Of a DNA stretch of 64,000 bases, positions 1-35,290 are shown in pieces. Every line of letters starts with the position of its first letter. Position 1 is the stretch's first letter. A program made the position numbers and the translations under genes. Under the pieces are notes generated by a model, which searched no databases, was not told where the DNA came from, and saw only the letters and a list, made by a program, of their open reading frames with translations. The stretch is from the NCBI GenBank assembly GCA_022749895.1, contig JAKIWS010000005.1:8827-72826 (forward strand). Direction: 5' to 3'. The DNA comes from Thermoplasmata archaeon (GTDB lineage Archaea > Thermoplasmatota > Thermoplasmata > Lutacidiplasmatales > UBA184).

Positions 1-3000
1 AGGCATGCGCGGGCTGATCGACGAGTATCTACTGGCCCACGGCCAATCCCCGTACCTGGGGAACGCGAACCTCGCGGTCTACAAGGTCGGGAACGCCTGG
101 CAGAACGGCAACCTCTCGCTCGTCCCGTACTACGACATCGGGACCGTCCCCTACAACGGGGCCACCGGCGTGCTCGGCAACGGGACCAGTTTCTGGGGCA
201 ACTTCGGCGTCCAGCAGGGCTGGCAGTGGCCCCCCGGTCAGAAGTTCCCCGTCAACGCGCTGGGTCAGACGAACTACGGCGATACGCTCCCCGGATGGGA
301 CTTCCCGACCGGCTGGGGCTCGATCAACGTGTACAACTTCGCGGTCGACCTGCTCAAGCTGGACACGCTGCCCGGGCAGTTCCAAACTACGAACCCCGCC
401 GGCACGTCTTGGAATCCGAGCGGTTGGGCAAATCTAGCGATGAACTCAACGTATACGATTCACGTAAACGCCAGTTCGCAAATTGCACTGTCTAACCCCC
501 ACGTTACCCTGAAGTACATGCCTGAGAACGGTCCAGTCTCGACGTTCCAGCCCGCGTTGACGGCGACGTTAACCCCTACCGCAGGCTACACCTTCACTCT
601 CGACACGTCGACCGGCGTCATCAACGGCCCCGGGACCGTCATTTTCGAGTTCGGGAACGCTTCGAACCCTACTCTTGGGTTCGCCTACTCGTGGATCTCC
701 CTTGACCTGCCGAAGACCGGCGCGCTCGTCGTCACGGTGACGCAACCGTCGAGCAGCTCGATCGTGGGCGGCTTCTCCTGGTTCAACACCGCGCTCGGGT
801 ACAACGCGCCCATCACGCTCTCCCCCGGGCTCGGCCCGAACTACGGGAACGAGTTCACCGTCCACGTCACGATGAACGGAAAGCCCGTCTACAACGTGAA
901 GGTCGACGCCACGATCGCGTCGCCCTCGTTGCTCGCCTTCTCGGGCACCCGCCTCGAGCAGGTGACGAACGGCCTCGGTAACCCGCACTGGGAGCTGCCG
1001 AAGATCGTCTCCGAGTCGTTCACGAACGTTACCGGGGACGCGTTCGTCTACACCTGGAACATGATCAAGCCGACCACGTACTTCGTCAACGCCTCCTACG
1101 GCGGCGCGACCGGGGGCACGACCTACCTGGTCACCCCGGGCCCCAACGTGGGAACTACGGACGCGTACAGCGGGAACTATTCCCAGTTCAGTACGCCGGG
1201 CTTCGTGCTTCGGGCGCTCCGCCAGGTCGTGAACGGCGCGACGATCAACGCGACCGAACCGAACGCGCTCAACCAGACCGCACTCTACAACGTGATCTAC
1301 TCGTGGAAGGGCGAACTGCTCAACGTCACGACCAACGACTGGCAGGGCAACCGGCTCTCCGGTCTCAAGGTCTGGCTGGCGACGCTCGACCTCGGGGGCG
1401 AGAACAAGTTCTATCGGTACGAGGGATCGCGCGGTCTCATGGGCGTGACGAACGTCTCCGGAACCTCCGCCATCACCGACCTGAACGGTCAGGCGCAAGT
1501 CTACGTTCCGGACAACTACAGCGCGCTGCCCTGGTTCCAGTACCCCGACGGGACGATCGCCGAGCTCGGCTTCGTCGCAGCCAGCATCCCCGGGGCGTCG
1601 AACCGGACCTTCTCCTACCAGGAGCCGTGCGCGCCCAACAACCTCGGTAACCCGAGCACCAAGATCACGTGCCAGTACAACGACTCGTATTCCCGGAACT
1701 ATACCGGGGCTCCGATCCTGGTCCTGCCGAACCCGGTCGATGCGTGGACGCAGACGCCCAACCTCGTCCAGCGGGACTTCTTCGGGAACGGGGCGAACAT
1801 CTCCTGGGGGTACGACGTGACCCTCCCGAACAACGACCCGTTCCTGACGGGGATCGGCACGGCGTGGCTGCCGGGGACCGAGCACATCACCGGCGTTCAC
1901 GCGTTCGTCGACGGGGCCCCGGCGGGCGATCTATCGCCGGGCAATCCGCCCAACTACCAGAGCTACACCGCGAACGGCAACCTGACGGGGGTCTACGCCG
2001 ACGGGATCCACACGCTCACGGTCATCGTGACCGACTCGACCGGGCACACGTTCTCGAACCGCCACACGTTCATCGTCGGGTCGATCAAGCTGACCAACCT
2101 CGGCGTGACGAGCACCTACACCGTGCTGCCGTTCAACATGACCTGGCACCTCAGCATCCCGGCCGGCCAGATCAGCAACCACACGTTCAACCAGTCGCTC
2201 CAGATCCGGTACGTGACCGGCGCCTGCGGCGGGATCATCCCCTGCCCGGAGGTCGTCAACTACTCGATCAAGATCAAGGACGGGGTCGCCGATTACCAGC
2301 AGTCGCTCAACATCACGCTGCTCAATCTGAAGCACTTCTACGCCGGGGCCGGCGAGCCTCCGCCGGGCCAGTACCAGCTGATCGTCTGGGTCACGGCGAA
2401 CCATTCGGGGAGCATCGCGACATCGATCACGTCGTACCTCGTCTTCGACTCCGTGGCGGGGACGATCAACGGGCCGACCGCGAACGAGCTTTTGCCGCAG
2501 GGGAACGTCACGATCTCCTACTCGTACTCCGGCCAGTACGTTCAGAACTCGACCCTCGAGATCTTCGCCGTGGGTGCCCCGACGATCCCCGTGTTCACCG
2601 CGCAGGCGTTCGTCCCCGGTATCGGACTGCGGGGTGGTGCCGTCCAGTGGTCGGCGGTTCAGGGCGGGGCGTACCAGATCGTGCTGAGCCTAGGTACTCC
2701 GTACCGTACGTTGAACGCCACCGAGTGGGTCAACGTCTCCGGGGGACCCGGGAACGTCTGGCTCAACCAGAGCCGGCTCGCGTCGCCGCTCATGATCGTC
2801 AATCCGGCGGTGACCGCGACGGTGCTCGCCCTCGTGGTGGGCCTCATCGGGTTGCTCCTCGGACTGTTCCTCGCGCCCGCCCTCCGCTCGCGTCCAAGCG
2901 GGAGTGCGGTCGCCGCGCCGCCGCGTCCGTGGGAGGAGAGTTCCTCCTCGCCCGGCGGGCCGAGCGGCCCCACCGGTCCGCCGCGGTATGCGTGCTCGAC

Positions 3001-3073
3001 GTGCAAGGAGGAGTTCGAGACCTCCTACGCGCTCGCGCAGCACCGGAAGATCGTTCACGGGATCGACGAGTAG
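1..3073 (+). CDS. Giant cell-surface glycoprotein-like protein (5' partial). Beta-rich extracellular region with many N-x-S/T sequons, then a C-terminal TM helix and a cytoplasmic C2H2 zinc finger.
   Basis: The ORF is open from the window edge to the stop at 3071-3073. The protein is dense in N-glycosylation sequons. Hydrophobic helix AVTATVLALVVGLIGLLLGLFLAPAL. The tail YACSTCKEEFETSYALAQHRKIVHG fits C-X2-C-X12-H-X4-H. It shares a G-x-Y-Q-[LFV]-[TI]-[VA]-W motif domain with the protein at 8652-10256. Confidence 0.6.
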   Translation, partial: GMRGLIDEYLLAHGQSPYLGNANLAVYKVGNAWQNGNLSLVPYYDIGTVPYNGATGVLGNGTSFWGNFGVQQGWQWPPGQKFPVNALGQTNYGDTLPGWDFPTGWGSINVYNFAVDLLKLDTLPGQFQTTNPAGTSWNPSGWANLAMNSTYTIHVNASSQIALSNPHVTLKYMPENGPVSTFQPALTATLTPTAGYTFTLDTSTGVINGPGTVIFEFGNASNPTLGFAYSWISLDLPKTGALVVTVTQPSSSSIVGGFSWFNTALGYNAPITLSPGLGPNYGNEFTVHVTMNGKPVYNVKVDATIASPSLLAFSGTRLEQVTNGLGNPHWELPKIVSESFTNVTGDAFVYTWNMIKPTTYFVNASYGGATGGTTYLVTPGPNVGTTDAYSGNYSQFSTPGFVLRALRQVVNGATINATEPNALNQTALYNVIYSWKGELLNVTTNDWQGNRLSGLKVWLATLDLGGENKFYRYEGSRGLMGVTNVSGTSAITDLNGQAQVYVPDNYSALPWFQYPDGTIAELGFVAASIPGASNRTFSYQEPCAPNNLGNPSTKITCQYNDSYSRNYTGAPILVLPNPVDAWTQTPNLVQRDFFGNGANISWGYDVTLPNNDPFLTGIGTAWLPGTEHITGVHAFVDGAPAGDLSPGNPPNYQSYTANGNLTGVYADGIHTLTVIVTDSTGHTFSNRHTFIVGSIKLTNLGVTSTYTVLPFNMTWHLSIPAGQISNHTFNQSLQIRYVTGACGGIIPCPEVVNYSIKIKDGVADYQQSLNITLLNLKHFYAGAGEPPPGQYQLIVWVTANHSGSIATSITSYLVFDSVAGTINGPTANELLPQGNVTISYSYSGQYVQNSTLEIFAVGAPTIPVFTAQAFVPGIGLRGGAVQWSAVQGGAYQIVLSLGTPYRTLNATEWVNVSGGPGNVWLNQSRLASPLMIVNPAVTATVLALVVGLIGLLLGLFLAPALRSRPSGSAVAAPPRPWEESSSSPGGPSGPTGPPRYACSTCKEEFETSYALAQHRKIVHGIDE

Positions 3074-3267: not shown

Positions 3268-6200
3268 GTGAACGCCCACATTCGCCCCACCGTTGTTCCC
3301 CGAGCGCCGCGCCGATGGCTCGTCCTCCCACTCCTCGTGGCCATCCTTGCGATCACCGTGGTCGGGTCGGTCCCCGCCCTCGGCCGACCTCTCGCGACGG
3401 CCGTCCATCTTCCCACCGCGAACGGACCCGCCTCGGCCGGGGCCGCGCACGCGGCGATCACGGCCGCCCGCGCCTCGCTGGCGTCGGGTCAGGGACCTGC
3501 CGGGCTCCCCGTGCTCTACTCCGGCTCGCCGGCAACCCCGTGGACGCCCGCCTTCCAGCCCAACGTGGCCCCGTCGGCCCGCGCCGCCCTGGCGATGGCG
3601 TACGACCCGAGCGGTCCGTACGTGGTCGCTTTCGGCGGCGGGTGGAACGGCGGGACCTCGACCAACGACACGTGGGTGTTCGCGAACAACTCGTGGACCA
3701 ACATCTCGGCGACGCTCACGACCGCGCCGGGTCCGCGCGAAACCCCGATGATGGCGTACGATGCGGCCGACGGCTATCTCCTCCTGTTCGGGGGGTACAC
3801 GGGCAAGAACCCGAATTCGACCGGTTCCTACACCCTCAACGACACTTGGAAGTTCACGGCCGGGGCGTGGACGAACATCTCCACGTTCTCGTCATCCGCG
3901 CCCTCCCCCCGGTTCGCCGCGGCGATGACGTACGACTACACCGACGGCTACGCGGTGCTGTTCGGCGGGAACACGCTGTTCGGACCGCCCCTGAACGACA
4001 CCTGGACGTTCCACGCCGGAGCCTGGACGAACGTCTCCGCGACCGCCGGGACGGCACCGGCCGGTCGGGACTTCGCCGCGATGGCGGACGACCCGTTCGA
4101 CGGCTACGCCCTCCTGTTCGGCGGCTGGAACTCGACCAGCTCCGCGCTCTACAACGACACCTGGACGTTCGCGGGGGGGCACTGGGGCGCGCTCGCGACG
4201 ACCGTGCAGCCGGTGCCGCTGCGCGGGGAGAGCCTCGCGTACGACGCTTCGCACCACCAGGTGATTCTGTTCGGCGGGGCGGCAGCCGGCCTCGGTGGGC
4301 CGTTCTACCCCCAGGCGCAGACCTGGAGCTTTGCCGGCGGGGTGTGGACCGACCTCACCGCGACGATCGCGAGTCCCCCCCCGGCACGCTACCTGGCCGC
4401 GCTGACCAACGTCTCCGCGAACGGCTCGCTGCTGATGGCGGACGGATGCCTCGGGCAGGGCTGCGCGAACTTCCTCGACCTCTCCGATAGCTGGCTCTTC
4501 AACGCCTCGGGACCCGTGGCGCGGCCCTGGATCGAGGTCGGCGCGGTCGTCCAACCGTCCGAACGGGCGACCCCGGGGATGGTCTACGACGCCGCGGACC
4601 ACTACGTCCTCTACTTCGGCGGCGGGTGGAACGGCGGAACCTCCACGAACGATACCTGGGTGTACGCGAACCACACGTGGAGCAACATCAGCGCGAACGT
4701 GACGACCGCCCCCGCGGCCCGCGAGGACCCGGCGATGACGTACGACGCCCTGGACGGCTACGTGCTCCTGTTCGGTGGATACAGCGCGACGGGTGGCTAC
4801 GGCTCCCCGTCGTACACCCAGAACGACACGTGGACGTTCCACGCCGGGGTCTGGACGAACATCACGGCCTCCTCGCCCACCCACCCGTCCGCGCGCTTTG
4901 CGTCGGTCATGACCTACGACTACAACGACGGCTACGCCGTCCTGTTCAGCGGGAACGTGCTCTTCGGTGGCCCGATCGAGGACACCTGGACGTTCCACGC
5001 CGGGGTCTGGACGGACGTGACCGCGACGGCGGGAGCGCCCCCTGCAGGCCGCGACTTTGCGTCGATGACCGACGACCCGGCCGACGGGTACGTGCTCTTG
5101 TTCGGCGGGTGGAATTCGTCGATCGCCACCGTCTACAACGACACGTGGACGTTCGCCGCCGGGAAGTGGGCGCCGCTCACCCCCGCGGTCTCCCCGATGC
5201 CGATCCGCGGCGCGAACGTCGCGTTCGAGACCGTCGGGAACTACGTCCTCCTGTACGGCGGCCTCACCTACAGCGGCTACGGTTGGCCGTTCGGCTTCGT
5301 CACGGAGACGTGGGCGTTCAAGGCCGGGAACTGGACCAACCTGACGCCGATGATCACGACCGAGCCGCCCCCCCGCATGCTCGGCGGGATCACCAACATC
5401 TCCGGTACCGGGGAGATCGTGATGGCGGACGGCTGCATCTACCAGGGCTGCCCGGTCAACGAGGACCTCGCGGACACGTGGATCTACAACTGGACGAACA
5501 TCAACGGCACGTTCACGTCGCTCGCGCCGGTCGTGCTGCACCAGTCGGCGAAGTTCGCGGTCCACGTCTTCGGCGGCGACGGGGCCTATTCGTACCGGTA
5601 CTCCGGCCTTCCCGGCGGATGCACCTCCGCGAACGTCGCCGTGTTGAACTGCGTCCCGGCCTACGGGGGCAACTACACGATCGTGGCGCAGGTCACCGAC
5701 CGCGCCGGCAAGATGCTCGACCTCCGCCTGAACCTCACCCTCGGGGTCATGCCCCGCTCGCTCGCGCTGAGCGCCTCGGTCCCGGTGCTCGACGTGGGAC
5801 AGTCGGTGACGCTGAGCGCCGTGGCCGGTGGAGGCGCGGGTGCGCCGTGGACGTACGCGTTCACCGGGTTGCCGCCGGGCTGTGCGAGCGCGAACGTCGC
5901 GTCCCTCAGCTGCTCGCCGACGCAGGGCGGGAGCTACACCGTGACGGCGACCGCGACCGACGCCCAGGGTGGGCCGGTCCGCTCGGTCGTCGGCTTGGTC
6001 GTCCACCCGCCGGTGCGCGTCGCCGCGACGGTCTCCGCGGCGACGTTCGACCTCACGGAGTTCGTGACGATGACCGCCGCCGCCAGCCAGGGGTCGTCGG
6101 TCTACACCTACCTCTGGTCGAACCTTCCGACCGGTTGCCAGGCGGGCGCCACGACGACGACGCTCCAGTGCAAGCCGGCAACGGCCGGGACGTTCGCGAC

Positions 6201-6792
6201 CACGCTCCAAGCGACCGACTCCCTCGGGGAATCGGCGGTGACGGCGCCGATCGCCCTCACGGTGAACCCGCTCCCCGGGGTGCAGCTCGCGGCCCCGGTG
6301 GTCTCCACCTCCGACCCGCTCTCGGCAACGCTCGCCGCGCAGACGACGGGCGGGACCGGTCCGTACGCGGTCGCGTGGAACTTCGGCGACGGTCAGGCGG
6401 GTTCCGGGCCCTCGGTCGTCCACATCTACGCGGCCGGCGGCACCTACACCGTGGCCGTGTCGGTGACCGATGCGCGCGGGTTCGTCGCCTCGAGCAGCCA
6501 GAGCGTCACGGTGCAGGCGAGCCAGTCGAACTCACCGCCCCCGAACCACCCGACCGCGACGCACGGGGCGACGCCCTGGTTCGCGACGTTCGCGGGGATG
6601 TTCGGACTCGGCCTCGTGATCGGACTCGTGGCGCTGGCCGTCGTGGTCGTCTGGGGCGCCCGCCGTCGGCGGACGCTCCTCGAAGCCGAGCAGCTCGTGA
6701 CGGCGATCCCGCTCGTCGTGGAAGGTCCCCCAGGGGCCCCCACGATGGGCCCGGCCACGCCGAGCGGACCGTCCCCCCCACCGAAGGTTTAG
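3268..6792 (+). CDS. Large surface protein with a tandemly duplicated Kelch-like beta-propeller region, a PKD domain and a C-terminal membrane anchor.
   Basis: GTG start with an N-terminal signal/TM (WLVLPLLVAILAITVVG). Kelch-type units such as YDxxDGYxLLFGG and NDTW recur. PKD motif WNFGDGQAGSGPSVVHIYAAGGTYTVAVSVTD near the C-terminus. TM FAGMFGLGLVIGLVALAVVVVW followed by RRRR. Many N-x-S/T sequons. Confidence 0.65.
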   Translation: MNAHIRPTVVPRAPRRWLVLPLLVAILAITVVGSVPALGRPLATAVHLPTANGPASAGAAHAAITAARASLASGQGPAGLPVLYSGSPATPWTPAFQPNVAPSARAALAMAYDPSGPYVVAFGGGWNGGTSTNDTWVFANNSWTNISATLTTAPGPRETPMMAYDAADGYLLLFGGYTGKNPNSTGSYTLNDTWKFTAGAWTNISTFSSSAPSPRFAAAMTYDYTDGYAVLFGGNTLFGPPLNDTWTFHAGAWTNVSATAGTAPAGRDFAAMADDPFDGYALLFGGWNSTSSALYNDTWTFAGGHWGALATTVQPVPLRGESLAYDASHHQVILFGGAAAGLGGPFYPQAQTWSFAGGVWTDLTATIASPPPARYLAALTNVSANGSLLMADGCLGQGCANFLDLSDSWLFNASGPVARPWIEVGAVVQPSERATPGMVYDAADHYVLYFGGGWNGGTSTNDTWVYANHTWSNISANVTTAPAAREDPAMTYDALDGYVLLFGGYSATGGYGSPSYTQNDTWTFHAGVWTNITASSPTHPSARFASVMTYDYNDGYAVLFSGNVLFGGPIEDTWTFHAGVWTDVTATAGAPPAGRDFASMTDDPADGYVLLFGGWNSSIATVYNDTWTFAAGKWAPLTPAVSPMPIRGANVAFETVGNYVLLYGGLTYSGYGWPFGFVTETWAFKAGNWTNLTPMITTEPPPRMLGGITNISGTGEIVMADGCIYQGCPVNEDLADTWIYNWTNINGTFTSLAPVVLHQSAKFAVHVFGGDGAYSYRYSGLPGGCTSANVAVLNCVPAYGGNYTIVAQVTDRAGKMLDLRLNLTLGVMPRSLALSASVPVLDVGQSVTLSAVAGGGAGAPWTYAFTGLPPGCASANVASLSCSPTQGGSYTVTATATDAQGGPVRSVVGLVVHPPVRVAATVSAATFDLTEFVTMTAAASQGSSVYTYLWSNLPTGCQAGATTTTLQCKPATAGTFATTLQATDSLGESAVTAPIALTVNPLPGVQLAAPVVSTSDPLSATLAAQTTGGTGPYAVAWNFGDGQAGSGPSVVHIYAAGGTYTVAVSVTDARGFVASSSQSVTVQASQSNSPPPNHPTATHGATPWFATFAGMFGLGLVIGLVALAVVVVWGARRRRTLLEAEQLVTAIPLVVEGPPGAPTMGPATPSGPSPPPKV
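3571..5540. repeat. Internal tandem duplication of about 0.98 kb per unit inside the Kelch-repeat gene (two copies of a whole propeller module).
   Basis: Protein residues about 102-429 and 430-757 align end to end (AMAYDPSGPYVVAFGGGWNGGTSTNDTWVFANNSW versus MVYDAADHYVLYFGGGWNGGTSTNDTWVYANHTW). The DNA is also clearly similar, for example ttcggcggcgggtggaacggcgg.acctc.ac.aacga. Confidence 0.6.
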
Positions 6793-6891
6793 GAGCCACC
6801 GAGGTCTCTCGAGCCTGGGGGGGATGGGATCTCGCCCACCGCATGGGAGTTCTGGGCCGGCCTCGCCGCGGGGCTGGCCCTCGCCGCCGGG

Positions 6892-7479
6892 GTGTACGGC
6901 GCTCTCCGATGGCAGTTCGCCCGGCTTCGGCGCCGGCTTGCGGCGTCGACGCCGGCGCTCGGTGCGACGCGGGGGGCCGGCGCGCCTTCCGCGCCGAGTC
7001 CCTCGCCCCCCGACGATCTAATCGAGCCGGTTGAGGCTCCGGCATCCCGAAACGTCGGAGGAATCCCCCCGACCCCGGCCGCCGCGCCATCCCTGATACC
7101 GGCGGTCCGGCTATCCCGACGCATCCTCGGCCATCTGGCGCGGCTCGGCGATTTCGGGCAGGACCCGTCGCGGGCCGCCGCCGCCACGCAACGGGGGATG
7201 GGGGACGCGCTCGGGGTGACCCAGGGGGCGCTCTCGAGCGTCCTGCGCCGGCTCGAGGATGCGGGCGCCATCGTCTCGGAGAAGGCGCATGTCCGGGGCC
7301 ACGAGCGACGCGTGAAGGTCTACGTGCTCACCCCCCGTGGACAGAAGCTGTGGGCGGCCGTGCCGCCCGATCTACGGAACGGCAGCGTCGCCGTCGAACT
7401 TTCCACCGCCCCGCCGTCGATGAAGCGCGCCCGTCTGTCCACCGAACCGCTCGCTCCGATGGTCGAGCGGCGTCGCTGA
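6892..7479 (+). CDS. Winged-helix (MarR/PadR-like) transcriptional regulator.
   Basis: The central segment GMGDALGVTQGALSSVLRRLEDAGAIVSEKAHVRGHERRVKVYVLTPRGQKL looks like a wHTH recognition helix plus wing. The start is uncertain; GTG at 6889 is possible. Confidence 0.45.
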   Translation: MYGALRWQFARLRRRLAASTPALGATRGAGAPSAPSPSPPDDLIEPVEAPASRNVGGIPPTPAAAPSLIPAVRLSRRILGHLARLGDFGQDPSRAAAATQRGMGDALGVTQGALSSVLRRLEDAGAIVSEKAHVRGHERRVKVYVLTPRGQKLWAAVPPDLRNGSVAVELSTAPPSMKRARLSTEPLAPMVERRR

Positions 7480-7492
7480 ACCCGCGGCCGGG

Positions 7493-8158
7493 CTACCCGG
7501 TCTTGGGCAGGAGGCCGAACGCCTTGCTTTCGGAGACGAGGACGAGGGGGGAGCGGCCGGTGGCCGCCGCAAAGTCCACGAAGGCGTAGCTCCAGTCGAC
7601 GTCGTCGGACGCGAGCCACCCCGCCGCCGAGAGCTTCGACCAGGCGAGAGCGAACTCCAGGCTCTGCCAACGGTACGTGTGGTCGCTGTCGTGGATGAAC
7701 AGGTCGATCGACGGGATCGACGCAAACACGGCCTCGAGGTCCCGGCGCGGTCGTCGCCGCGACAGCAGGCGAAGGTCCCACCCGGCACGCAACTCGGGAG
7801 GGATCAGCGCGCCGACATCCGGTCGGACGTCGATGGAGGTGAGCTGGCCGCCGCCGTTGCGTCGAAGGGCCTCCAGTATGAGGTAGCTCGAGTGGCCGTT
7901 GGCGACCCCGGTCTCGACGACCCGTTGGGGGGCCCGACCCCGGACGATCCCGTAGACCAGGAGCGACTCCGCGCCCGAGAAGGCGGAAACGGTCGGGTAC
8001 GGCAGCGACGACCCATACCGCTTCTTGAGCCCGTCCGACACCTCGCGGAACTCGACGACCAGTTCACCGACGCGGTCCCGGGGGAATCCCGGTATCCGGG
8101 TGAGGATCGCGGCGGCGTCCGTGCTCTGCAGCGTGGCGCGGGCGTACGACTCCATCAT
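7493..8158 (-). CDS. Class I SAM-dependent O-methyltransferase (family 3 / TylF-CmcI-like).
   Basis: VETGVANGHSSYLILEAL with a GGQLTSID SAM-binding fold and a DSDH motif. Start chosen at the internal MMESYA. The longer ORF up to 8545 is probably an upstream read-through of the frame. Confidence 0.6.
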   Translation of the reverse strand: MMESYARATLQSTDAAAILTRIPGFPRDRVGELVVEFREVSDGLKKRYGSSLPYPTVSAFSGAESLLVYGIVRGRAPQRVVETGVANGHSSYLILEALRRNGGGQLTSIDVRPDVGALIPPELRAGWDLRLLSRRRPRRDLEAVFASIPSIDLFIHDSDHTYRWQSLEFALAWSKLSAAGWLASDDVDWSYAFVDFAAATGRSPLVLVSESKAFGLLPKTG

Positions 8159-8651
8159 CCGGGGCGCGACGAACCGGTGGGCGAGACGGCGCACCGCGCC
8201 GGCGTAGCGGTCGGCGACGTAACTCCGCCCGACCTCCCAGACGCCCTCTTGACGCAGGCGCTCACGAACGGTGGAGCGGCGCGGAGCGTTCGGAGGGGGC
8301 GAATTCGCCAACCGTTGGGACCTCCGAAAGCTGAGGTCCGCCTCCCGGTCGAGGACGAGAAGGGCCGGTATATGGCCTGCGCGGCGGGGCGACGCCCGGC
8401 GGGGAGCTCTCGAGGGCGAACGACGCGAAAGTCGAAGACCTTGCCTCGTTCCGATCGTTTCAGCGTCGCCGGATTGAGAGAGGCGCGACGCTCGGCGGAG
8501 GAAGCGCACCCAAAGATGGTGCGTCCGAGTGTGACGAATCCACATCCCTTCGAACGTCGGAGGTAGGTGCCGACGCGGAGGCGCGTCGCCCCGGTTATTC
8601 TTCGCCGGAGCGGAGCTTCGCCCGAGAGCCGTGTTCCGCGAGATTTAAGTA

Positions 8652-10256
8652 ATGAAAGTCGTCACCAAGCTTATGCGCCGAGCTTCGGGTAAGAATGTAG
8701 GTGCGGTAGCGACTACGGCCATACTGGTGCTCGCCGGGGTCGCGGTGTTGGGGTTCGGTCTCCTCAGCACGCACTCGGCGGTCTCCGTGGGGATTCCCCA
8801 CGGGGGTGCGGTCGCGCCGTTCACCAAGGCCGTCCACCCCGCGGCGGCCCCGAAGCCCCTAGCGCCCCCAAGTCCGCCCGTCACCGTGACGGTAGCGATC
8901 ACCGCGCAGCCGCCCACGAGCTCCGACATTCCGCTCTCGTTCAACTTCTCGGTGGTCGTGACGGGGGCCGTCGCGGACCGGCACAACCTCACGCTCACCG
9001 TGGCCGCCTGGGAAGTCGCCCCGAGCACGCTGATCGCGAACTACTCGGTCCACGTCGTCAAGAACCAGGTCGCCTACACCACGACGGTCGACTACGGCAA
9101 GCTCAACACCCAACTGTTCAACGGCGGAAACCTGCCGGGCGGCAACTACCAGTTCACCGTCTGGGGAACGATGGTCAACAGCACCAACGCCTCGGTGGCC
9201 ACGGCCACGGGGAGCGCGACGACGGCGCAGAGCAAGCTCTACGTCATCGACGTCCGCACGAGCCTCGCGAACGGGCTCACCCTCTACGAGACCGTGCCGT
9301 TCAACATCACGTTCAACGTGTCGATCACCGGCAACCAGGGCGTGCCGCTCCGCACGGACAGCGCGGTGCTCTCCGTCGAGGCACGGTACATCGTATCCGG
9401 CTGCGGCAGCGTCTTCGGCTTTGGTGGACCGTGTCCGTCGGTGACGAACGTGACGGTCCCGGTGGTCAACGGGACGACCTCGTACACCTTCACCGTGAAC
9501 GGCGCGTTCCTTACCGCCGGCGGCTTCGGCGCGGCGACCTCGGTCGCCGGACTCCCGCACGGGTCGTACCAGGTCATCGCCTGGGCGACGATCATGAACG
9601 CCAGCAACGCCTCGGCCGAGCCCCGGACGGGAGCGGCGGCGCACAACCAATGGCTCGTGCTCAACCCGCTCGTCGGGGCCGTGCTGTCGCCCGGCGCCAA
9701 CACGACGATCTCGACCGGCAACGTGACGATCTCGGTGGGCTACGGCGGCGACTTCATCAACGGCGCGAACGTGACGGTGACGTCACCCTCGGGCTCGACG
9801 GTGTTCGCGAACCCTGTGTTCGTCCCGGGCACCGGCTATCGGGCGGCGACCACCGTGACGCCGTGGGTCGTGACCACGCCCGGAACGTACACGATCACCC
9901 TGGTCGTGACCTCGATCCCGGGCGGGACGGCCGGAACGCTCACTGCGGTCGAGAAGGTCACGGTCGTGCCCGCGGGCGGAACGGTGTTCCAGAACACGAG
10001 CTCGTTCTCGAACCAAACGGTCATCCCGGGACTCAGCGGGGCGGTCGGCGGTGCGCTGCTGATCGTCATCGGCCTCATCATAGGCATGATCGTCGCGCTC
10101 GCCCTGGGGCGGGCGATGTGGGGCGGAGCGAAGCCCGCGCCGGCCCAGCCGTGGACCGGGACGACGTCGCCGACGGAGTGCCCCGTCTGCCACCAGACGT
10201 TCCCGACCGAAGAGGCGATGAAGGAACACTCCAAGTCCGCCCACGGGATGCAGTAA
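8652..10256 (+). CDS. Cell-surface protein with Ig-like repeat units, a C-terminal TM helix and a cytoplasmic C2H2 zinc finger. Paralogous in domain content to the protein ending at 3073.
   Basis: N-terminal signal/TM (AVATTAILVLAGVAVLGFGLL). Repeated units carry GNYQFTVWGT...NSTNAS and GSYQVIAWAT...NASNAS. TM LLIVIGLIIGMIVALALG. The tail ECPVCHQTFPTEEAMKEHSKSAHG fits C-X2-C-X12-H-X4-H. Confidence 0.6.
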   Translation: MKVVTKLMRRASGKNVGAVATTAILVLAGVAVLGFGLLSTHSAVSVGIPHGGAVAPFTKAVHPAAAPKPLAPPSPPVTVTVAITAQPPTSSDIPLSFNFSVVVTGAVADRHNLTLTVAAWEVAPSTLIANYSVHVVKNQVAYTTTVDYGKLNTQLFNGGNLPGGNYQFTVWGTMVNSTNASVATATGSATTAQSKLYVIDVRTSLANGLTLYETVPFNITFNVSITGNQGVPLRTDSAVLSVEARYIVSGCGSVFGFGGPCPSVTNVTVPVVNGTTSYTFTVNGAFLTAGGFGAATSVAGLPHGSYQVIAWATIMNASNASAEPRTGAAAHNQWLVLNPLVGAVLSPGANTTISTGNVTISVGYGGDFINGANVTVTSPSGSTVFANPVFVPGTGYRAATTVTPWVVTTPGTYTITLVVTSIPGGTAGTLTAVEKVTVVPAGGTVFQNTSSFSNQTVIPGLSGAVGGALLIVIGLIIGMIVALALGRAMWGGAKPAPAQPWTGTTSPTECPVCHQTFPTEEAMKEHSKSAHGMQ

Positions 10257-15971: not shown

Positions 15972-16686
15972 GCTTCGCCCCCGCGACGACCGCGTCGCGC
16001 AGCATAGCGAGGTTCGATTCGACGCGCCCGCCCGTGAACACCGAGTTGCCGCAGACAAAGAACGACGCTCCCGCGGCCGCGGCCTCGGCCCCGGTCTCCG
16101 CCGTTACGCCGCCGTCGATCGAGAGCTCCGCGTTCGACCCCATCGTGTCGAGCGCGGCGCGGGCTTGGCGGAGCTTGGGGAGAGCCTCCGTCAGGAACGA
16201 CTGCCCGGAGAAACCGGGATGGACGCTCATCACCAGGAGCTCGTCGAGGTCCCCGAGCCATCGAGCGGCGGCTTCGAGCGGGGTCTCCGGGTTCACGGCG
16301 AGCCCGACCTCCACACCTAGCGCGCGAATCTTCGGAATCAACTCGCGAGGAGATCCGTCCGCCTCGACGTGAAAGACCAGGGTGGAACCACCGGCGGCCG
16401 CGAACGCTTCCACGTACTGGGCCGGCTTTTGGATCATCAGGTGCACGTCGAGCGGGAGCTTCGTACGGGAGCGGACCGCGCGCACGAGCGCCGGGCCGAA
16501 CGAGATGTTCGGGACAAAATGGCCGTCCATCACATCGAGGTGGAGCGCGTCCGCCCCGCCGGCTTCCGCGGCCGCGACCGCGGCCCCGAGTTCGGCGAAA
16601 TCCGCGCTCAGAAGCGACGGGGCGAGCCGAAGCCTCCGGCTCGCCGAGGTCACGAGCGCCCGTGTCCGGTCGAGTATATATATCAC
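15958..16686 (-). CDS. rpe: Ribulose-phosphate 3-epimerase.
   Basis: APSLLSADFAELG, HLDVMDGHFVPNISFG and VMSVHPGFSGQSF. The true start may be internal to this ORF. Confidence 0.8.
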   Translation of the reverse strand: MIYILDRTRALVTSASRRLRLAPSLLSADFAELGAAVAAAEAGGADALHLDVMDGHFVPNISFGPALVRAVRSRTKLPLDVHLMIQKPAQYVEAFAAAGGSTLVFHVEADGSPRELIPKIRALGVEVGLAVNPETPLEAAARWLGDLDELLVMSVHPGFSGQSFLTEALPKLRQARAALDTMGSNAELSIDGGVTAETGAEAAAAGASFFVCGNSVFTGGRVESNLAMLRDAVVAGAKRAVR

Positions 16687-16743
16687 CTACGGGGTCGGAC
16701 CGCTAAGTTTCCGGGGAACCGGGATCTCTTGGGTGAGAACTAC

Positions 16744-19700
16744 ATGGAGCAAGCGAAAGCGTCGTACACGGGTCGTTGGGGAGGCCGCCGAGGGATCGGC
16801 ACGGCCATCGCCGCGGTGGTCATGGTCATCGTGATTGCCCTGGTCGGGGCCGGCACGTATGTCGGTCTCAATTCCCAGCCGCACGGGAACAAGACCGTCA
16901 AGTCGTGCACGCCGGCGAACTCTCCGATCTGTGTCGCTTCCGCACAGACGCACGATGTCGGTCTGCTGGTGCCGTTCAAGGCGTCGCAGACGGGCAATAC
17001 GGTTCCTTTCACCGCCATCCTCCCGGCCGGAGACACGGCCTCCAGTTTTGCGTTCAATTTTGGTGACAGTGGCCCCACGAGCACGGCGACCTCCACCCAG
17101 CCGACCGTGACCCACGTCTACTCGAGCGCGGGCGTCTACCTGATCTCCGTCCAGGCGACGGTCCGCGGCGTCGTGCACGACAACTACCAGAAGCTCACCG
17201 TTGTGACGGTCTCGGCGTTCGCGAGCGCGGGCGCCGCGAACCAGCCCGGCGTGTCGGGCTCGGTCGTGACCAACAGCACGGCGATCACCGGCTCTCCTCC
17301 CACGACGATTCTGCAGCCGGGCGGCTCCGTGACCTTCACGGGCTCCTACACCGCCGCTCCGACGAACCCGCAGTTCGTCTTCGCGTCCCCCACCATCATC
17401 TCCTCGACCGGCGGCACCGTTCAGGGAACGCCCACGAACACCACCACCTCCGCCACGGCCGCCTATTCGTTCGCGGCCTCGGGAACGTATGTGGTGACGT
17501 TCGTCGGGAAGGCCGTCAGCGGAACGGTGAGCGCCTTCCAGAACTACACTTGGACCGTCTTCGTCGCGCCGAGCGGCATCCACGCGGGGGTCGCCGGTAC
17601 GGGGGTCGCAACCAGCCCGCACAAGGGCTCGCTCAACATCTACGAAGAAACCCCCGGCGGCGGCACCAGCGAAGACCCGGCCGTCGACTACGAGACAGCG
17701 GGCTACGAGGTCATCCTCAACGTCTACCAGACCTTGATCGCGTACAACGGCAGCCAGACGGGTCCGACGTACGCGTCGTACGTCCCCCAGCTCGCGACGT
17801 GCGTGCCGGGAAGCCCGGCGTGCGCGCTGCAGTTCAGCGGCAACACGCTGGTCCGCGGCGACAACTACACCTTCGTCCTCGACTCGGCGGCGAAGTTCTT
17901 CGACCCGGCGACCAAGGCGTCCTGGGGCGTCTACCCGACCGACGTCCTGTTCAGCGTCGCGCGCACGATGAGCTTCGCGAACCTGCCGTCGTTCGGCGGC
18001 AACAACGGCTGGATCCTCGAGCAGGCGATGCTGCCCTCCGGGAACAAGAACTGGGACGGGGGCCTCCACGGCGCGCGGAACAACACCCCGGACAACATCT
18101 ACAGCCACGTCATCCTCAACGGGAGCGACTGCCCCGCCGTAGCGATGACCGGGGCGGCCTACCACGGCTGCGTCACCTTCTGGGCGAACGGCGCGGGTCA
18201 TTCCTGGCCGTACTTCCTGGAACTGATCGCGGACAACCTGGGCGCTTCGATCGTTCCGTGCGGCTGGTTCAGCGCGGCACCTCAGGTAGCGGGCATCCCG
18301 TACTGGACGTACAACAACGTCACCGGCTCGGGCGACCACCCGTGCGCCGCGCCCGGAACGCCCGGCTGGGGCCTCTCCCCGACGGCCATCGCGGCGAAGC
18401 CGACGGCGTGGGACAACTACCAGATGGTCGGCTCGGTGCCTCCGTTCTGGGGTAAGGTCCAGTGGGCGTTGGCGGGCAGCGGCCCGTACTACGTCCCGAC
18501 CGGCGGCTACCAGATCGGCTTGAGCTACCTGCTCCAGGCGAACCCCGCGTACGTCCAGCCGTCCTTCTGCCACGGCGCCGGCTGCGAGCCCGCCGCCGGC
18601 CAGTACGCCGCGAAGGTGAGCGTCATCTGGGAAACGACCCAGACGCCCGGCGAGCAGGCGTATGCGACGGGGGTCGCGGACGAAGCGTCGATCCCGGGAA
18701 CGGACACGGCGTTGCTGCTGTCGTTGGTCGCCCAGGGGAAGATCCAGGCGATCACGTTCCCGTCGATCAGCATCGACTTCTTCCCGTTCAACCTGTTGTT
18801 CAACGCCCCGGGGGCCGCGAAGTACACCTCGAACCCGATCACCGTGCAGCCGGACTTCTTCAGCTACCTCGCGGTGCGGCAGTTCTTCGCGCATGCGTAC
18901 CCGTACACGACGATCCAGTCGACGCTGAACACGATCGACGGGATCCAGGGGGCGTTCAACTACGGTGGGGCGATCCCGCAGTTCATGGCGAACTACTACC
19001 CCACCAACGTGAGCTTCCCCAACGCGGACCCGTGTGCGGACAACACGAAGGCCGCGTGCGCGGTGTACTGGTGGGCGCAAGCGACGAGCGCGTCGTCCCC
19101 GTACTACGATAAGGAGCTCGCGGCGTGTTCGTCGTCGAGTCCGTGCGAGGTGCCGCTGTTCGGCCAGACCGGCGCACCGACGCTCGATGAACGGATGGCG
19201 CTGTGGGCCGCCTCGATCAACACGATCTCGGGCGGTGCGGTCAAGGTCGACACGCTCGACATCAACTTCGTCGACGCGGTGATCAACTCTCTGTTCAGCC
19301 CGCCGGGCGCCAACGCGATGCCGTTCTACCGGCTCGGCTGGGCGCCCGACTACCCGGACCCGACGGACTACGTGACGCCGATGTACCTGCCCGACAGCAC
19401 GTACACCTCGGCGGACACCGTCGCGGAGCAGCTCGGGGTCGGCGTCAACACCGCGTTCAACGACAGCAGCTGTGCGACGACGGCGGCGTTCACGAACTAC
19501 GTCAAGTGGGCGTCGATTGCCCAGACGACCGGCGGGATCCCGAACAACTGCCAGGGCATGGCGTACAGCTCCATGACCTACCTCGAGGGCTTGGCGGCCG
19601 TCCAGCCGGCGGGCCCGCAGCGGGTGCTGATGTACAACTGGGTCGAGCAGATCGCGAACGCGCTCGCGCTCTACACCTACTCGTTCCAGAACAACTACAT

Positions 19701-19809
19701 CTACACCTACGCGAGCTGGATCGACGGGTCGACGATCAACAGCAACGTGACGATCGGGGGCGGCGGCGACTCGCTGTGGTACCTGATCGGCGGCAACGGG
19801 GTCTACTGA
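16744..19809 (+). CDS. oppA: Oligopeptide/dipeptide-type ABC substrate-binding protein (SBP family 5) with an N-terminal signal anchor and an inserted PKD domain.
   Basis: N-terminal TM AIAAVVMVIVIALVGAGTY. PKD motif FAFNFGDSGPTSTATSTQPTVTHVYSSAGVYLISVQATV. SBP_bac_5-like core (DPAVDYETAGYEVILNVYQTLIAYN, then GWAPDYPDPTDYVTPMY). About 1020 aa. Paralog of 35291-38305. Confidence 0.75.
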   Translation: MEQAKASYTGRWGGRRGIGTAIAAVVMVIVIALVGAGTYVGLNSQPHGNKTVKSCTPANSPICVASAQTHDVGLLVPFKASQTGNTVPFTAILPAGDTASSFAFNFGDSGPTSTATSTQPTVTHVYSSAGVYLISVQATVRGVVHDNYQKLTVVTVSAFASAGAANQPGVSGSVVTNSTAITGSPPTTILQPGGSVTFTGSYTAAPTNPQFVFASPTIISSTGGTVQGTPTNTTTSATAAYSFAASGTYVVTFVGKAVSGTVSAFQNYTWTVFVAPSGIHAGVAGTGVATSPHKGSLNIYEETPGGGTSEDPAVDYETAGYEVILNVYQTLIAYNGSQTGPTYASYVPQLATCVPGSPACALQFSGNTLVRGDNYTFVLDSAAKFFDPATKASWGVYPTDVLFSVARTMSFANLPSFGGNNGWILEQAMLPSGNKNWDGGLHGARNNTPDNIYSHVILNGSDCPAVAMTGAAYHGCVTFWANGAGHSWPYFLELIADNLGASIVPCGWFSAAPQVAGIPYWTYNNVTGSGDHPCAAPGTPGWGLSPTAIAAKPTAWDNYQMVGSVPPFWGKVQWALAGSGPYYVPTGGYQIGLSYLLQANPAYVQPSFCHGAGCEPAAGQYAAKVSVIWETTQTPGEQAYATGVADEASIPGTDTALLLSLVAQGKIQAITFPSISIDFFPFNLLFNAPGAAKYTSNPITVQPDFFSYLAVRQFFAHAYPYTTIQSTLNTIDGIQGAFNYGGAIPQFMANYYPTNVSFPNADPCADNTKAACAVYWWAQATSASSPYYDKELAACSSSSPCEVPLFGQTGAPTLDERMALWAASINTISGGAVKVDTLDINFVDAVINSLFSPPGANAMPFYRLGWAPDYPDPTDYVTPMYLPDSTYTSADTVAEQLGVGVNTAFNDSSCATTAAFTNYVKWASIAQTTGGIPNNCQGMAYSSMTYLEGLAAVQPAGPQRVLMYNWVEQIANALALYTYSFQNNYIYTYASWIDGSTINSNVTIGGGGDSLWYLIGGNGVY

Positions 19810-32962: not shown

Positions 32963-33943
32963 GTGACCGAACCGCGCTCCAAGCATCCGTCGGTGGCCGA
33001 GGTCGCGCGCGATTACATTGGAGCCCATCCGAGCATCCGCGAGGCGTTGCGCGACGACCTGGTCAATTACGCCGCGCTCGCGCGGAAGATCCAGCAGGAG
33101 CAGGGCCTCGCGAGCCTCGAAGCGTTGACTGTCGCGTGCGCGCGCTACCAGCGGGCCGGCCGGGGCGATCCGCCCGGCCTCCTGGCGGTGCGCGCGATTG
33201 TCCGGAAGAGTCACCTGGAGGTGCATTCGCACGTGGCGTTGCTCCGGCTCGATGACGACTGGAGCGTCCTCGACGCCGTGCTCGCCCGGGGCCGCCGCGC
33301 CGTGAAGGAATCGACCGAAAGCCACCTGTTCGAGGTATTCCAAGGTACGCGGTCGGTGACGGTGCTCTGTCAGGAGCACCTCCTCCCGGCGCTCCTCAAC
33401 CTCGTTCCCGAGGCGAAGCGCCTCGGGACGGAGCGCGGGCTCAGTGTCCTCGCCTTCCGGAGCCGGCCCGGGGTCGCGGAAACGCCGGGCGTCCTGGCGT
33501 ACTCGGCCGATGAACTGTTCCGCAACGGGATCAACGCGCTCGAAACCGTCAGCGTTCACGCCGACTCGATCCTCGTGTTCCGGGACCGGGACGTCCTCCC
33601 CGCGTTCGCGACGTTGTCGCGCTTGTTGGCGACGTTGGACGGCCCCTTCGACCACGGTCGACAGGAACCCGCCCGGTTCTCGCGATCCATGGGTCGGGGG
33701 CCGCCAACCGCGAGCGAACCGAGACGGAGATCCCGCCGGCCCTCGTCGACGGGCAGCGAGGGTTCGGTCGACTCAATCGGGAGGGGCGCCCGGGGTCTCC
33801 GCGGGGGGGGGTGTCCCCGAATCCAGGTCAGGCTTCCACGGGTGGGGCTTCGCCCCGGCGCTCGGGGGTCCGGATCGGCTCGGGCGCCGACGGCGCGCTT
33901 TGCAGGGCGCCCTGGAGCAGCACCGATCGTTCGCGGGCATTGA
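32963..33943 (+). CDS. ACT-domain protein (predicted small-molecule-binding regulator). The 3' end is uncertain; it is a paralog of 34471-35166.
   Basis: ETPGVLAYSADELFRNGINALETVSVHADSILVFRDRDVLPAFATLSRL matches the ACT fold pattern. The N-terminus aligns with the paralog (IREALRDDLVNYAALARKI versus IRDCLGYDIVNFTALARKI). The conserved part ends near residue 235; the Arg-rich tail may be non-coding read-through. Confidence 0.5.
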   Translation: MTEPRSKHPSVAEVARDYIGAHPSIREALRDDLVNYAALARKIQQEQGLASLEALTVACARYQRAGRGDPPGLLAVRAIVRKSHLEVHSHVALLRLDDDWSVLDAVLARGRRAVKESTESHLFEVFQGTRSVTVLCQEHLLPALLNLVPEAKRLGTERGLSVLAFRSRPGVAETPGVLAYSADELFRNGINALETVSVHADSILVFRDRDVLPAFATLSRLLATLDGPFDHGRQEPARFSRSMGRGPPTASEPRRRSRRPSSTGSEGSVDSIGRGARGLRGGGCPRIQVRLPRVGLRPGARGSGSARAPTARFAGRPGAAPIVRGH

Positions 33944-34217
33944 GCCCCGGATGCTGGCCGTAGAGGTGAATCTCGAGACTGGCGCGGGTCGCGTACTGGC
34001 GCGCGCAGACCGGGCAGAGGAACGCTTGGGAGTCCCCGATGAAGCGGGAGCATTCGCACCCGACCACGTGGCACGGCATCGGGGTGGTCCGGTCGCGGGG
34101 GCGGCTGAAATGCCGGCGGAGCCGGCCGGTCTGGGGGGAGAGAAGGTAGTGGCTAGCCCGTAGGTGGGTGCAGACTCGGCAGGGGAGTAGGCGCAGATGA
34201 CGTCGCTGGGTGACCAC
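33828..34217 (-). CDS. Small C2H2 zinc-finger protein.
   Basis: FLCPVCARQYATRASLEIHLYGQH fits C-X2-C-X12-H-X4-H. Additional Cys/His pairs lie upstream (CRVCTHLRASH; CHVVGCECSRF). The start is uncertain. Confidence 0.45.
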   Translation of the reverse strand: MVTQRRHLRLLPCRVCTHLRASHYLLSPQTGRLRRHFSRPRDRTTPMPCHVVGCECSRFIGDSQAFLCPVCARQYATRASLEIHLYGQHPGLNARERSVLLQGALQSAPSAPEPIRTPERRGEAPPVEA

Positions 34218-35166: not shown

Positions 35167-35290
35167 GCCGGCCGATCTTGTCCGCTGTCCCCTCGCGTTC
35201 TCGGCGGAGGAATGCTGGTGAGAGGTATATATGAGCCCGAAGATAGGCGAGGCCTCCGAGAGAGCTTCTCTCCGGAGTCTGGGTTCGACG

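Follow-up and report, generated by a model that had tools for sequence, protein, structure and literature searches.

A predicted finger-tailed surface protein and its S53 sedolisin partner in a Lutacidiplasmatales genome carry paralogous membrane-anchor cassettes

The window analysed here is a 64,000 bp stretch of a Thermoplasmata archaeon genome (Lutacidiplasmatales; contig JAKIWS010000005.1, positions 8,827 to 72,826, forward strand). Its gene at 8652-10256 (gene B) encodes a predicted surface protein with a transmembrane (TM) helix and a C-terminal C2H2 zinc finger, and was examined together with the gene ending at 3073 (gene A). Sequence comparison indicates that A and B are true homologues beyond a shared short motif: the last ~330 amino acids (aa) of B, comprised of an immunoglobulin-like (Ig-like) module M2, a further domain M3, a stalk, the TM helix and the finger, are an ancient paralog of the A anchor. 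A itself is a sedolisin anchored in the membrane, with a single copy each of M2 and M3 and this anchor.

An earlier note on this DNA had connected the two proteins through a short motif, and had suggested that they are paralogous in both the ectodomain module and the tail. Both suggestions are borne out. Among the 46 likely proteins encoded in the window (18,653 aa in total), the strict pattern G.YQ[LFV][TI][VA]W matches three times and in genes A and B only, while 5e-5 matches are expected by chance as estimated by shuffling the A and B proteins. The matches are GNYQFTVW (B residues 164-171, nt 9141-9164), GSYQVIAW (B residues 304-311, nt 9561-9584) and GQYQLIVW in A (nt 2366-2389). The pairwise alignment and the comparison of hidden Markov models (HMMs) that the note had proposed as a check extend the similarity far past the motif. 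Residues 705-1021 of A align with residues 212-534 of B at 30% identity over 339 aa (BLASTP, E 3e-30), a span reaching from the ectodomain across the membrane helix into the C2H2 tail. Within B, residues 78-200 and 201-340, corresponding to the modules M1 and M2, are related to each other (hhalign probability 97.5%, E 7e-12, 108 columns), and an HMM of M2 and its relatives, built without M1, matches B residues 93-187 (E 7e-12). M3 was also considered as a third copy of this module, and was ruled out by hhalign E values of 0.2-0.3 against M1 and M2.

HMMs of M2, M3 and the tail match only A and B among the 46 window proteins. Neither the pattern scan nor the HMM scan disclosed further members of the cassette in the window, and no additional copy of M2 was detected in A by the HMM scan. 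Both proteins end in a TM helix followed by C-x2-C-x12-H-x4-H, as found by pattern scan. The features of the two genes are listed below, with residue numbers of B counted from the ATG at 8652; AF2 stands for AlphaFold2 and pLDDT for its per-residue confidence.

8640-8666, plus strand: conserved promoter element GAGATTTAAGTAATGAAAGTCGTCACC, with a TATA-like box TTTAAGTA at 8644-8651 abutting the annotated ATG at 8652
8652-10256, plus strand: gene B, predicted surface glycoprotein with a C2H2 tail; open reading frame (ORF) of 534 aa if started at 8652, but the ATG at 8673 (527 aa, leaderless mRNA) is the more probable start
8673-8780, plus strand: predicted signal peptide or signal anchor, read from the sequence as MRRASGK, a hydrophobic core of ~24 residues and STHSAVSVG; AF2 helix at residues 16-32
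8883-9266, plus strand: M1, Ig-like module, copy 1, residues 78-205; AF2 beta domain (pLDDT 85-95), GNYQFTVW followed by the sequons NST and NAS
9267-9671, plus strand: M2, Ig-like module, copy 2, residues 206-340; GSYQVIAW, Cys pair C251/C261, sequons NAS and NAS; aligns with A 705-830
9672-9971, plus strand: M3, third beta-sandwich, residues 341-440, unrelated to M1/M2; AF2 pLDDT 82-92, sequon N357; its HMM matches only A and B in the window
9972-10037, plus strand: membrane-proximal stalk, residues 441-462; invariant sequons N448 and N454, IPGLSG
10038-10112, plus strand: TM helix, residues 463-487 (AF2 helix 463-489); glycine zipper G474xxxG478xxxA482xxxG486, then R487
10113-10154, plus strand: predicted cytoplasmic juxtamembrane motif AMWGGAKPAPAQPW, residues 488-501; mean pairwise identity 0.76, the highest of any segment in the B family
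10173-10244, plus strand: single classical C2H2 finger ECPVCHQTFPTEEAMKEHSKSAHG at the extreme C-terminus, identified by pattern, Pfam tail scan, tail profile and AF2 helix 520-531 (pLDDT ~80)
2-3073, plus strand: gene A, C-terminal 1022 aa of a 1641-aa membrane-anchored S53 sedolisin; frame open from base 2, gene continuing upstream of base 1
2093-2455, plus strand: the single M2-type module of A (BLASTP; M2 HMM residues 698-818, E 1.5e-55); GQYQLIVW followed by the sequon NHS
2459-2749, plus strand: M3-type domain of A (M3 HMM residues 820-916, E 7e-40)
2807-3067, plus strand: anchor of A, with TM helix AVTATVLALVVGLIGLLLGLFLAPAL, a linker containing PRPWEE, and a C2H2 finger at 2993-3058 (BLASTP, pattern, HMM)

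Gene A, which had been described as a giant protein, is incomplete in the window. It is the last 1022 aa of a 1641-aa S53 protease, which the earlier note missed. The match to residues 620-1641 of protein P0012 (L3K15_01990, 1641 aa, from a Thermoplasmata metagenome-assembled genome, MAG) is 100%. In P0012, Pfam recognizes a pro-kumamolisin activation domain (Pro-kuma_activ, PF09286, residues 76-209, 3e-16) and a catalytic domain (Peptidase_S8, PF00082, residues 374-625, 5e-8). The N-terminal 619 aa, with the pro-domain and the catalytic domain, lie upstream of the window, and the GGTS catalytic-serine motif stands just before the first Met in the window. The same build is present in 45 homologs of 1620-1695 aa, all from Thermoplasmata where an organism is named.

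Gene B has a GC content at third codon positions (GC3) of 0.91, and its product is 100% identical to L3K15_02010 of a Thermoplasmata archaeon MAG. The full B model, built by AF2 from an alignment of 11 sequences, has a mean pLDDT of 71, with beta domains at 78-205, 212-336 and 341-439 (pLDDT mostly 80-95) between the N-terminal helix 16-32 and the helices 463-489 and 520-531. Foldseek places this model among proteins with tandem Ig, FN3 and macroglobulin domains (E ~1e-9 to 1e-12). M2 modelled alone from 35 sequences (pLDDT 80.8) is a sandwich of 6-7 strands with the motif in the penultimate strand, so the expectation of an Ig-like or fibronectin-like repeat unit agrees with the models. For M2 alone, Foldseek gave no solved structure at E <= 0.001, the best match having E 9.5e-3 and TM-score <= 0.49. 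A Pfam scan of the ectodomain found no family at threshold, only sub-threshold matches to Y_Y_Y (16.8 against 26.6 bits) and Mfa2. NCBIfam has no family for A or B, and neither database recognizes a peptidase domain in B. Because AF2 and Foldseek agree on the fold while Pfam and NCBIfam return no family, the modules are assigned to the Ig-like fold class without a family name.

The signature LPxGxYxxxV/W is the tyrosine-corner motif of the F strand in FN3-, PKD- and Y_Y_Y-type domains. In the models, the motif shared by A and B (signature LPxGxYQxxxW) is likewise the F-strand tyrosine corner of the M1/M2 sandwich. A weak Y_Y_Y match in Pfam (E 0.006) falls exactly at the motif and fits this signature. 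M2 is conserved in all S53-type relatives, and M1 is missing from the short forms P0007, P0008 and P0010. In addition, M2 contains a nearly invariant loop of the form Cys-x(5-9)-Cys-Pro (GCGS...GPCP; B residues 251-261, nt 9402-9434, and the equivalent site in A), which suggests an extracellular disulfide C251-C261. M1 is without this loop.

N-x-S/T sequons are about three times over-represented in both proteins, with 16 in B against 5.6±2.0 in shuffled sequences and 29 in A against 12.9±3.0, a difference of about 5 standard deviations. Sequons N357, N448 and N454 are present in 11 of 11 close relatives, and two of them are located in the stalk. The first charged residue after the TM helix is K or R in 134 of 136 family members. 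From the enriched and conserved sequons and the charge after the helix, the Ig-like part is placed outside and the finger inside the cell.

GxxxG occurs in the TM helix of all 136 family members, and the residues G474, L475, G478, A482, A484, L485, G486 and R487 are invariant among relatives of B. The linker between helix and finger carries a Trp in 132 of 136 members. Mean pairwise identity in the B family is 0.42 in M1, 0.36 in M2 and 0.45 in M3, compared with 0.67 in the TM helix and 0.73 in the finger; TM and cytoplasmic parts are thus more conserved than the ectodomain.

The ligand pattern of the finger reads CPVCHQTFPTEEAMKEHSKSAH in B and CSTCKEEFETSYALAQHRKIVH in A. Its spacing, C-x2-C-x12-H-x4-H, is exact in 141 of 141 full-length relatives and ends 3-8 residues before the stop. 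The finger core is similarly regular: of the 141, 136 have Phe at position 8, all have Leu or Met at position 14, and 123 have a Lys between their two His ligands. The tail of B alone scores 26.3 bits with the Pfam model zf-C2H2_6 (gathering cut-off 25 bits), and the whole protein 19.8; zf-C2H2_4 is matched by 30 of 30 tested tails (E <= 0.01). A profile of the tails retrieves solved C2H2 fingers, including Aart (1e-15), ZBTB20, CTCF and Zif268, and the large profile search described below also retrieves eukaryotic poly-finger proteins. In the AF2 model, the finger helix 520-531 is preceded by short bridges. The B tail is read as a classical C2H2 finger, predicted to take the beta-beta-alpha fold and to bind zinc.

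The last 30 aa of the relatives have a mean net charge of -2 (range -4 to 0). At the DNA-contact positions -1, 2, 3 and 6 the B finger has what we take to be T/E/A/E, mapped onto Zif268. A DNA-binding transcription factor was considered as a reading of the tail; because the finger is single, the tail acidic and the contact positions T/E/A/E, sequence-specific DNA binding is judged unlikely, and the acidity makes protein docking the more likely role.

About 14 proteins keep the TM helix and PAQPW but have the finger replaced by a Ser/Gly-rich tail. These finger-less B-type orthologs comprise P0084, P0085, P0095, P0107, P0140, P0142, P0148, P0155-P0158, P0163, P0164 and P0168, with one in locus L019 (11076-12641). 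They retain the juxtamembrane motif as GRxMWGG..PAQPW, followed by a low-complexity stretch, long and rich in Ser, Gly and Thr, whose last residues are NPPS, TNKP or TPPK. The finger-less ortholog of L019 occupies the B position and adjoins a finger-bearing sedolisin whose Phe at position 8 is changed to Ala.

A profile of B and its relatives was searched against 1.84 billion representative sequences. At E <= 1e-3 the search yielded 160 proteins, of which 129 reach E <= 1e-10; they are 260-1694 aa long, and almost every one aligns to the end of the profile. On this evidence the M2-M3-TM-finger cassette (~330 aa) is carried on varied ectodomains in about 130 clusters at 50% identity, and B is indeed a second member, after A, of a family with a TM helix and a zinc-finger tail, as had been proposed. 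Of 202 collected sequences, 155 have one C-terminal C2H2 pattern after a TM helix.

Tails fall into three classes: A-type, comprising sedolisins that end in ...HGIEE; B-type, with CxxCHQ, in proteins of 374-776 aa; and C-type, with CxxCGK...EELAAHxKSEHGM, in proteins of 365-1198 aa. M2 and M3 taken together sort in the same way, the nearest neighbour belonging to the same class in 130 of 134 cases, which argues that tail and ectodomain are inherited together. The A and B cassettes have a mean identity of 26% and keep to separate classes in all genomes, and the paralogy is therefore old. Recent co-evolution of A and B, or gene conversion between them, was rejected since the classes separate cleanly. 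As an illustration of ectodomain variety, the C-type protein P0111 has only the cassette in common with A.

All sources of family members that name an organism are Thermoplasmata archaeon MAGs. Several of the MAG names (AcS5-107, AcS5-34, SubAcS15-67) are those of Lutacidiplasmatales genomes from acidic forest soils, which have ~69% GC and in which, as in Cuniculiplasma, extracellular S53 peptidases are reported to be prevalent (PMC9287336). The GC content of the window is 64-72%, and its source is probably an acidic-soil member of this order. No Pfam or NCBIfam family covers the cassette, and literature searches found no published description of the family.

Assessing the organization of related loci revealed the same tandem in 12 of 12 cases (L001-L004, L007, L009-L013, L018 and L019), with the sedolisin gene followed directly by a B-type gene on the same strand after a gap of roughly 70-200 bp. 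Downstream of the pair are genes for SHMT, Csl4, an MTS methyltransferase, a PRC-barrel protein and DNA ligase. The studied genome differs by a block of three genes, outside the family, between A and B:

3268-8545: three-gene block of ~5.5 kb between A and B, in this genome only (Pfam)
3268-6792, plus strand: membrane protein of 1174 aa with Kelch x2 and PKD matches (Pfam), two Kelch propellers and a C-terminal TM helix, without a finger
6892-7479, plus strand: winged helix-turn-helix regulator, PadR/MarR-like (Pfam)
7493-8545, minus strand: Methyltransf_24 gene (Pfam)

None of these three genes is found between the pair in the 12 related loci, and the block is therefore taken to be an insertion specific to this genome. 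A search at its borders found no terminal direct or inverted repeats, only repeats internal to the Kelch gene, and no sign of a mobile element. The suggestion of a co-evolving envelope gene set consequently holds for the A-B pair but not for the Kelch/PKD, regulator and methyltransferase genes, which by this comparison are bystanders and form no conserved set.

In the lineage with C-type tails, the same slot between AAA_18 and SHMT holds a single finger-tailed gene of ~830-880 aa. These slot genes (L014 8001-10637, L015 1938-4574 and L017 10001-12496) belong to the CxxCGK finger class and have an unrelated N-terminal ectodomain, and no finger-tailed sedolisin is present in these three loci. 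As far as the compared loci indicate, slot and anchor are conserved while the displayed ectodomain varies.

In every locus that is long enough, two protease genes are conserved at a distance of 4-5 genes upstream from the pair or slot, in a region that lies outside the window. One encodes a Peptidase_M50 (site-2 protease) with PDZ domains (L001 1109-2461, L002 1109-2470, L014 4034-5371, L017 5993-7351, L018 2130-3566, L019 2210-3562), the other a second S53+PKD protease, oriented divergently.

The ORF reported at 8652-10256 exists, although its start is probably at 8673. The DNA GAGATTTAAGTA(A/T)TGAAAGTCGTCACC is invariant upstream of all B-type genes, codon third positions included, and is unchanged between loci whose proteins share only 34-50% identity. 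An exact match to the upstream element precedes B-type genes in 9 loci, and it occurs once in the window. The ATG at 8652 reads TTG in L005, while the ATG at 8673 is invariant and lies 29 nt downstream of the start of TTTAAGTA. The same spacing from TATA box to ATG (~29-30 nt) is seen in the C-class locus L017, without an upstream in-frame start. Given this invariance at the DNA level, the TTG in L005, the TATA spacing and the geometry in L017, the probable start of B is the ATG at 8673. The protein would then have 527 aa and be translated from a leaderless mRNA made from a promoter of its own, as the known geometry of archaeal promoters suggests. An operator or initiator role is conceivable for TGAAAGTCGTCACC, which is invariant and separates the TATA box from the start.

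Taking these features together, we consider it reasonably probable that B is a bitopic, N-glycosylated surface protein that packs its helices through GxxxG and uses its cytoplasmic finger as a docking site, with most of the uncertainty residing in the last two steps. In this proposal B would be exported by Sec, glycosylated at the conserved sequons, and held in the membrane by its C-terminal helix. The GxxxG face would pack helices into homo-oligomers of B or hetero-oligomers with the sedolisin, while the finger would fold around zinc in the cytoplasm and dock a conserved cytoplasmic or membrane-peripheral protein rather than DNA. The cassette would thus be a lineage-specific anchoring module displaying an acid protease, Ig-like arrays and other ectodomains. 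A bolder extension would see in it a transmembrane coupling device, functionally akin to bunyavirus Gn tails or the tails of eukaryotic receptors, in which the C2H2 finger, generally regarded as a DNA-binding module of eukaryotes, ties glycoproteins and an extracellular protease to a conserved internal partner (cytoskeletal, membrane-remodelling or ribonucleoprotein) and the slot encodes the principal, fast-evolving envelope protein; we regard this extension as speculative and unlikely.

Several observations weigh against the docking proposal. GxxxG is common in Gly/Ala-rich helices and is no proof of oligomerisation, and the Lys between the His ligands (123/141) is typical of nucleic-acid-binding fingers too. 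The finger is not essential for anchoring, as B orthologs with Ser/Gly tails exist (P0084, P0085, L019 and others). A physical complex of A and B is not required either, since B has its own promoter and one lineage has a lone C-class gene without a finger-tailed protease. Furthermore, the neighbours of the pair are housekeeping genes in conserved synteny, and none of them is linked to the finger as a candidate partner.

Among other explanations, B and its positional equivalents may form the main envelope or S-layer-type protein of these archaea, or else serve as its stalk in the membrane in the manner of SlaB. The conserved locus would then be a slot for the surface layer, with the finger pinning the lattice to the cell. 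This possibility, which we find rather doubtful, is largely compatible with the docking proposal and overlaps it rather than excluding it. It is favoured by the single conserved slot (AAA_18, variable gene, SHMT-Csl4) that holds a finger-tailed surface protein in all lineages examined, with an ectodomain highly variable in length and sequence and evolving fast over a conserved anchor. The TATA box, which is canonical and strictly conserved, and the predicted leaderless design fit strong expression, and archaeal S-layer glycoproteins typically combine enriched sequons and Ig-like domains with a TM anchor at the C-terminus. On the other hand, B proteins of 390-540 aa with three small Ig domains are short for a canopy protein, and the AF2 model of B contains no coiled-coil stalk. 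Lutacidiplasmatales envelopes are undescribed, and the term 'S-layer' is not mentioned in the account of these genomes (PMC9287336).

It is considerably less probable that B is a transmembrane sensor from which, after shedding of the ectodomain, the site-2 protease frees the finger peptide as a cytoplasmic regulator (regulated intramembrane proteolysis). The PDZ-bearing M50 gene near the pair or slot in L001, L002, L014, L017, L018 and L019, two adjoining S53 proteases, a TM helix rich in helix-destabilising Gly, and the high conservation of the cytoplasmic part would all suit such a mechanism. However, the M50 gene is surrounded by housekeeping genes (PriL, CDP-alcohol phosphatidyltransferase) in generally conserved synteny, which makes its proximity a weak argument; a lone finger that is acidic and has T/E/A/E in the contact positions is a poor DNA binder; orthologs without the finger exist; and the same tail is found on a protease with an extracellular job. 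More improbable still is a cleavable sorting signal of the archaeosortase/PGF-CTERM type, whose cleavage would take off TM helix and finger and leave the mature protein with a lipid anchor. B-type proteins do have (I/L)PGLS directly before the helix, with G460, L461 and S462 invariant, and the order of motif, helix and basic residue is reminiscent of PGF-CTERM. Yet 45-60 well-conserved residues including a folded finger follow the helix (47 in B), while known signals stop a few basic residues past it. The A class has NPAxTA in place of the pre-TM motif, and a G[LVI]x motif is present in only 80 of 136 members. The NCBIfam CTERM sorting-signal models give no match, and no archaeosortase was seen in the loci examined (the 64-kb window and ±10 kb of the related loci). 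This reading fails because of the conserved residues after the helix, 47 in number, and the lack of a CTERM match. Finally, the generic nature of the tyrosine-corner signature and the weak Y_Y_Y match at its position would allow a motif shared by chance or by convergence of Ig folds between proteins not specifically related. This is refuted by the BLASTP, hhalign and HMM results: the alignment takes in the TM helix and the finger, the M2, M3 and tail models single out A and B in the window, and the tandem is kept in 12 loci.

Comparison with known systems places the individual parts in familiar classes. The finger shares with classical C2H2 fingers (Pfam zf-C2H2, zf-C2H2_4, zf-C2H2_6) the pattern C-x2-C-x3-F-x5-L-x2-H-x4-H, the Phe/Leu core and the Lys between the His ligands, but the B tail is one acidic finger at the extreme C-terminus of a predicted archaeal membrane glycoprotein, without a TGEKP linker. 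Known prokaryotic C2H2-like proteins (such as Ros/MucR, and Brz of Halobacterium, PMC2253796) are small soluble regulators. Like sedolisins of the kumamolisin type (S53), A, as P0012, has a pro-kumamolisin activation domain and an S8/S53 catalytic domain; unlike them, it carries ~1000 extra residues ending in M2-M3-TM-finger, and B is without a peptidase domain. M1 and M2 resemble FN3, PKD and Y_Y_Y domains in their sandwiches of 6-7 strands with the LPxGxYxxxV/W signature, whereas the conserved Cys-x9-Cys loop of M2 is atypical and no Pfam Ig-like family matches at threshold.

The haloarchaeal cell-surface glycoprotein and Sulfolobus SlaB are similar to B in the signal peptide, beta-sandwiches, dense sequons, glycosylated stalk and C-terminal TM helix. 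B likewise combines what is predicted from its sequons and the TM helix 463-489 to be an N-glycosylated ectodomain with a C-terminal membrane anchor, as S-layer-type proteins do. It differs from the two in having no sequence or specific fold match to them, no coiled coil and no PGF-CTERM, and its conserved cytoplasmic finger, predicted to be folded, has no known counterpart there. The Gn protein of bunyaviruses (hantavirus; Crimean-Congo haemorrhagic fever virus, CCHFV) is also a type I glycoprotein, with a short cytoplasmic tail in which one or more beta-beta-alpha zinc fingers serve to dock a partner inside. In the viruses the fingers are basic, of CCHC type and two in number, whereas B has a single acidic Cys2His2 finger and is cellular, so the likeness is an analogy of design and no homology is claimed. 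For CCHFV, in vitro RNA binding by the finger of the Gn tail is reported, and a matrix-like role has been proposed for it (PMC4848600).

While the individual pieces (Ig-like modules, sedolisin, C-terminal anchor, C2H2 finger) are of known kinds, their combination is in no Pfam or NCBIfam family and in no paper that we found. We also found no description, for archaea or bacteria, of a single classical C2H2 finger as such a cytoplasmic tail. The cassette would serve to expose an acid-active sedolisin and a number of unrelated ectodomains at the cell surface. Its cytoplasmic end is better conserved than the exposed part, which suggests that something inside the cell reads the tails. If the finger binds a protein partner, it would offer a simple system for roles of the beta-beta-alpha finger other than DNA binding, and a model for connecting surface and cytoplasm in wall-less or S-layer archaea. 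Cell envelopes of uncultured Thermoplasmata are little known, and the A-B locus provides a testable handle on them. The annotation is corrected accordingly, with the giant protein read as a protease cut by the window edge, the start of B probably moved to 8673, and the three intervening genes set aside as bystanders.

The window also encodes three other large proteins of secreted type, without M2, M3 or the finger cassette, at 16369-19809, 30178-32883 and 35231-38305. They include two PKD + SBP_bac_5 proteins, of peptide-binding type (1146 and 1024 aa), and a peptidase of S8/S53 type (901 aa), and the entire region looks devoted to extracellular proteolysis and peptide uptake.

In addition, the minus strand has a possible ORF of 83 aa (33828-34079; translation MPCHVVGCECSRF...) with a C2H2-type pattern, CPVCARQYATRASLEIHLYGQH, the third in the window. 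The ORF shares ~115 nt with the 3' end of the plus-strand gene at 32963-33943, has no TM helix and no Pfam match at E <= 0.001, and its GC3 of 0.85 is compatible with coding. It could encode a small soluble zinc-finger protein.

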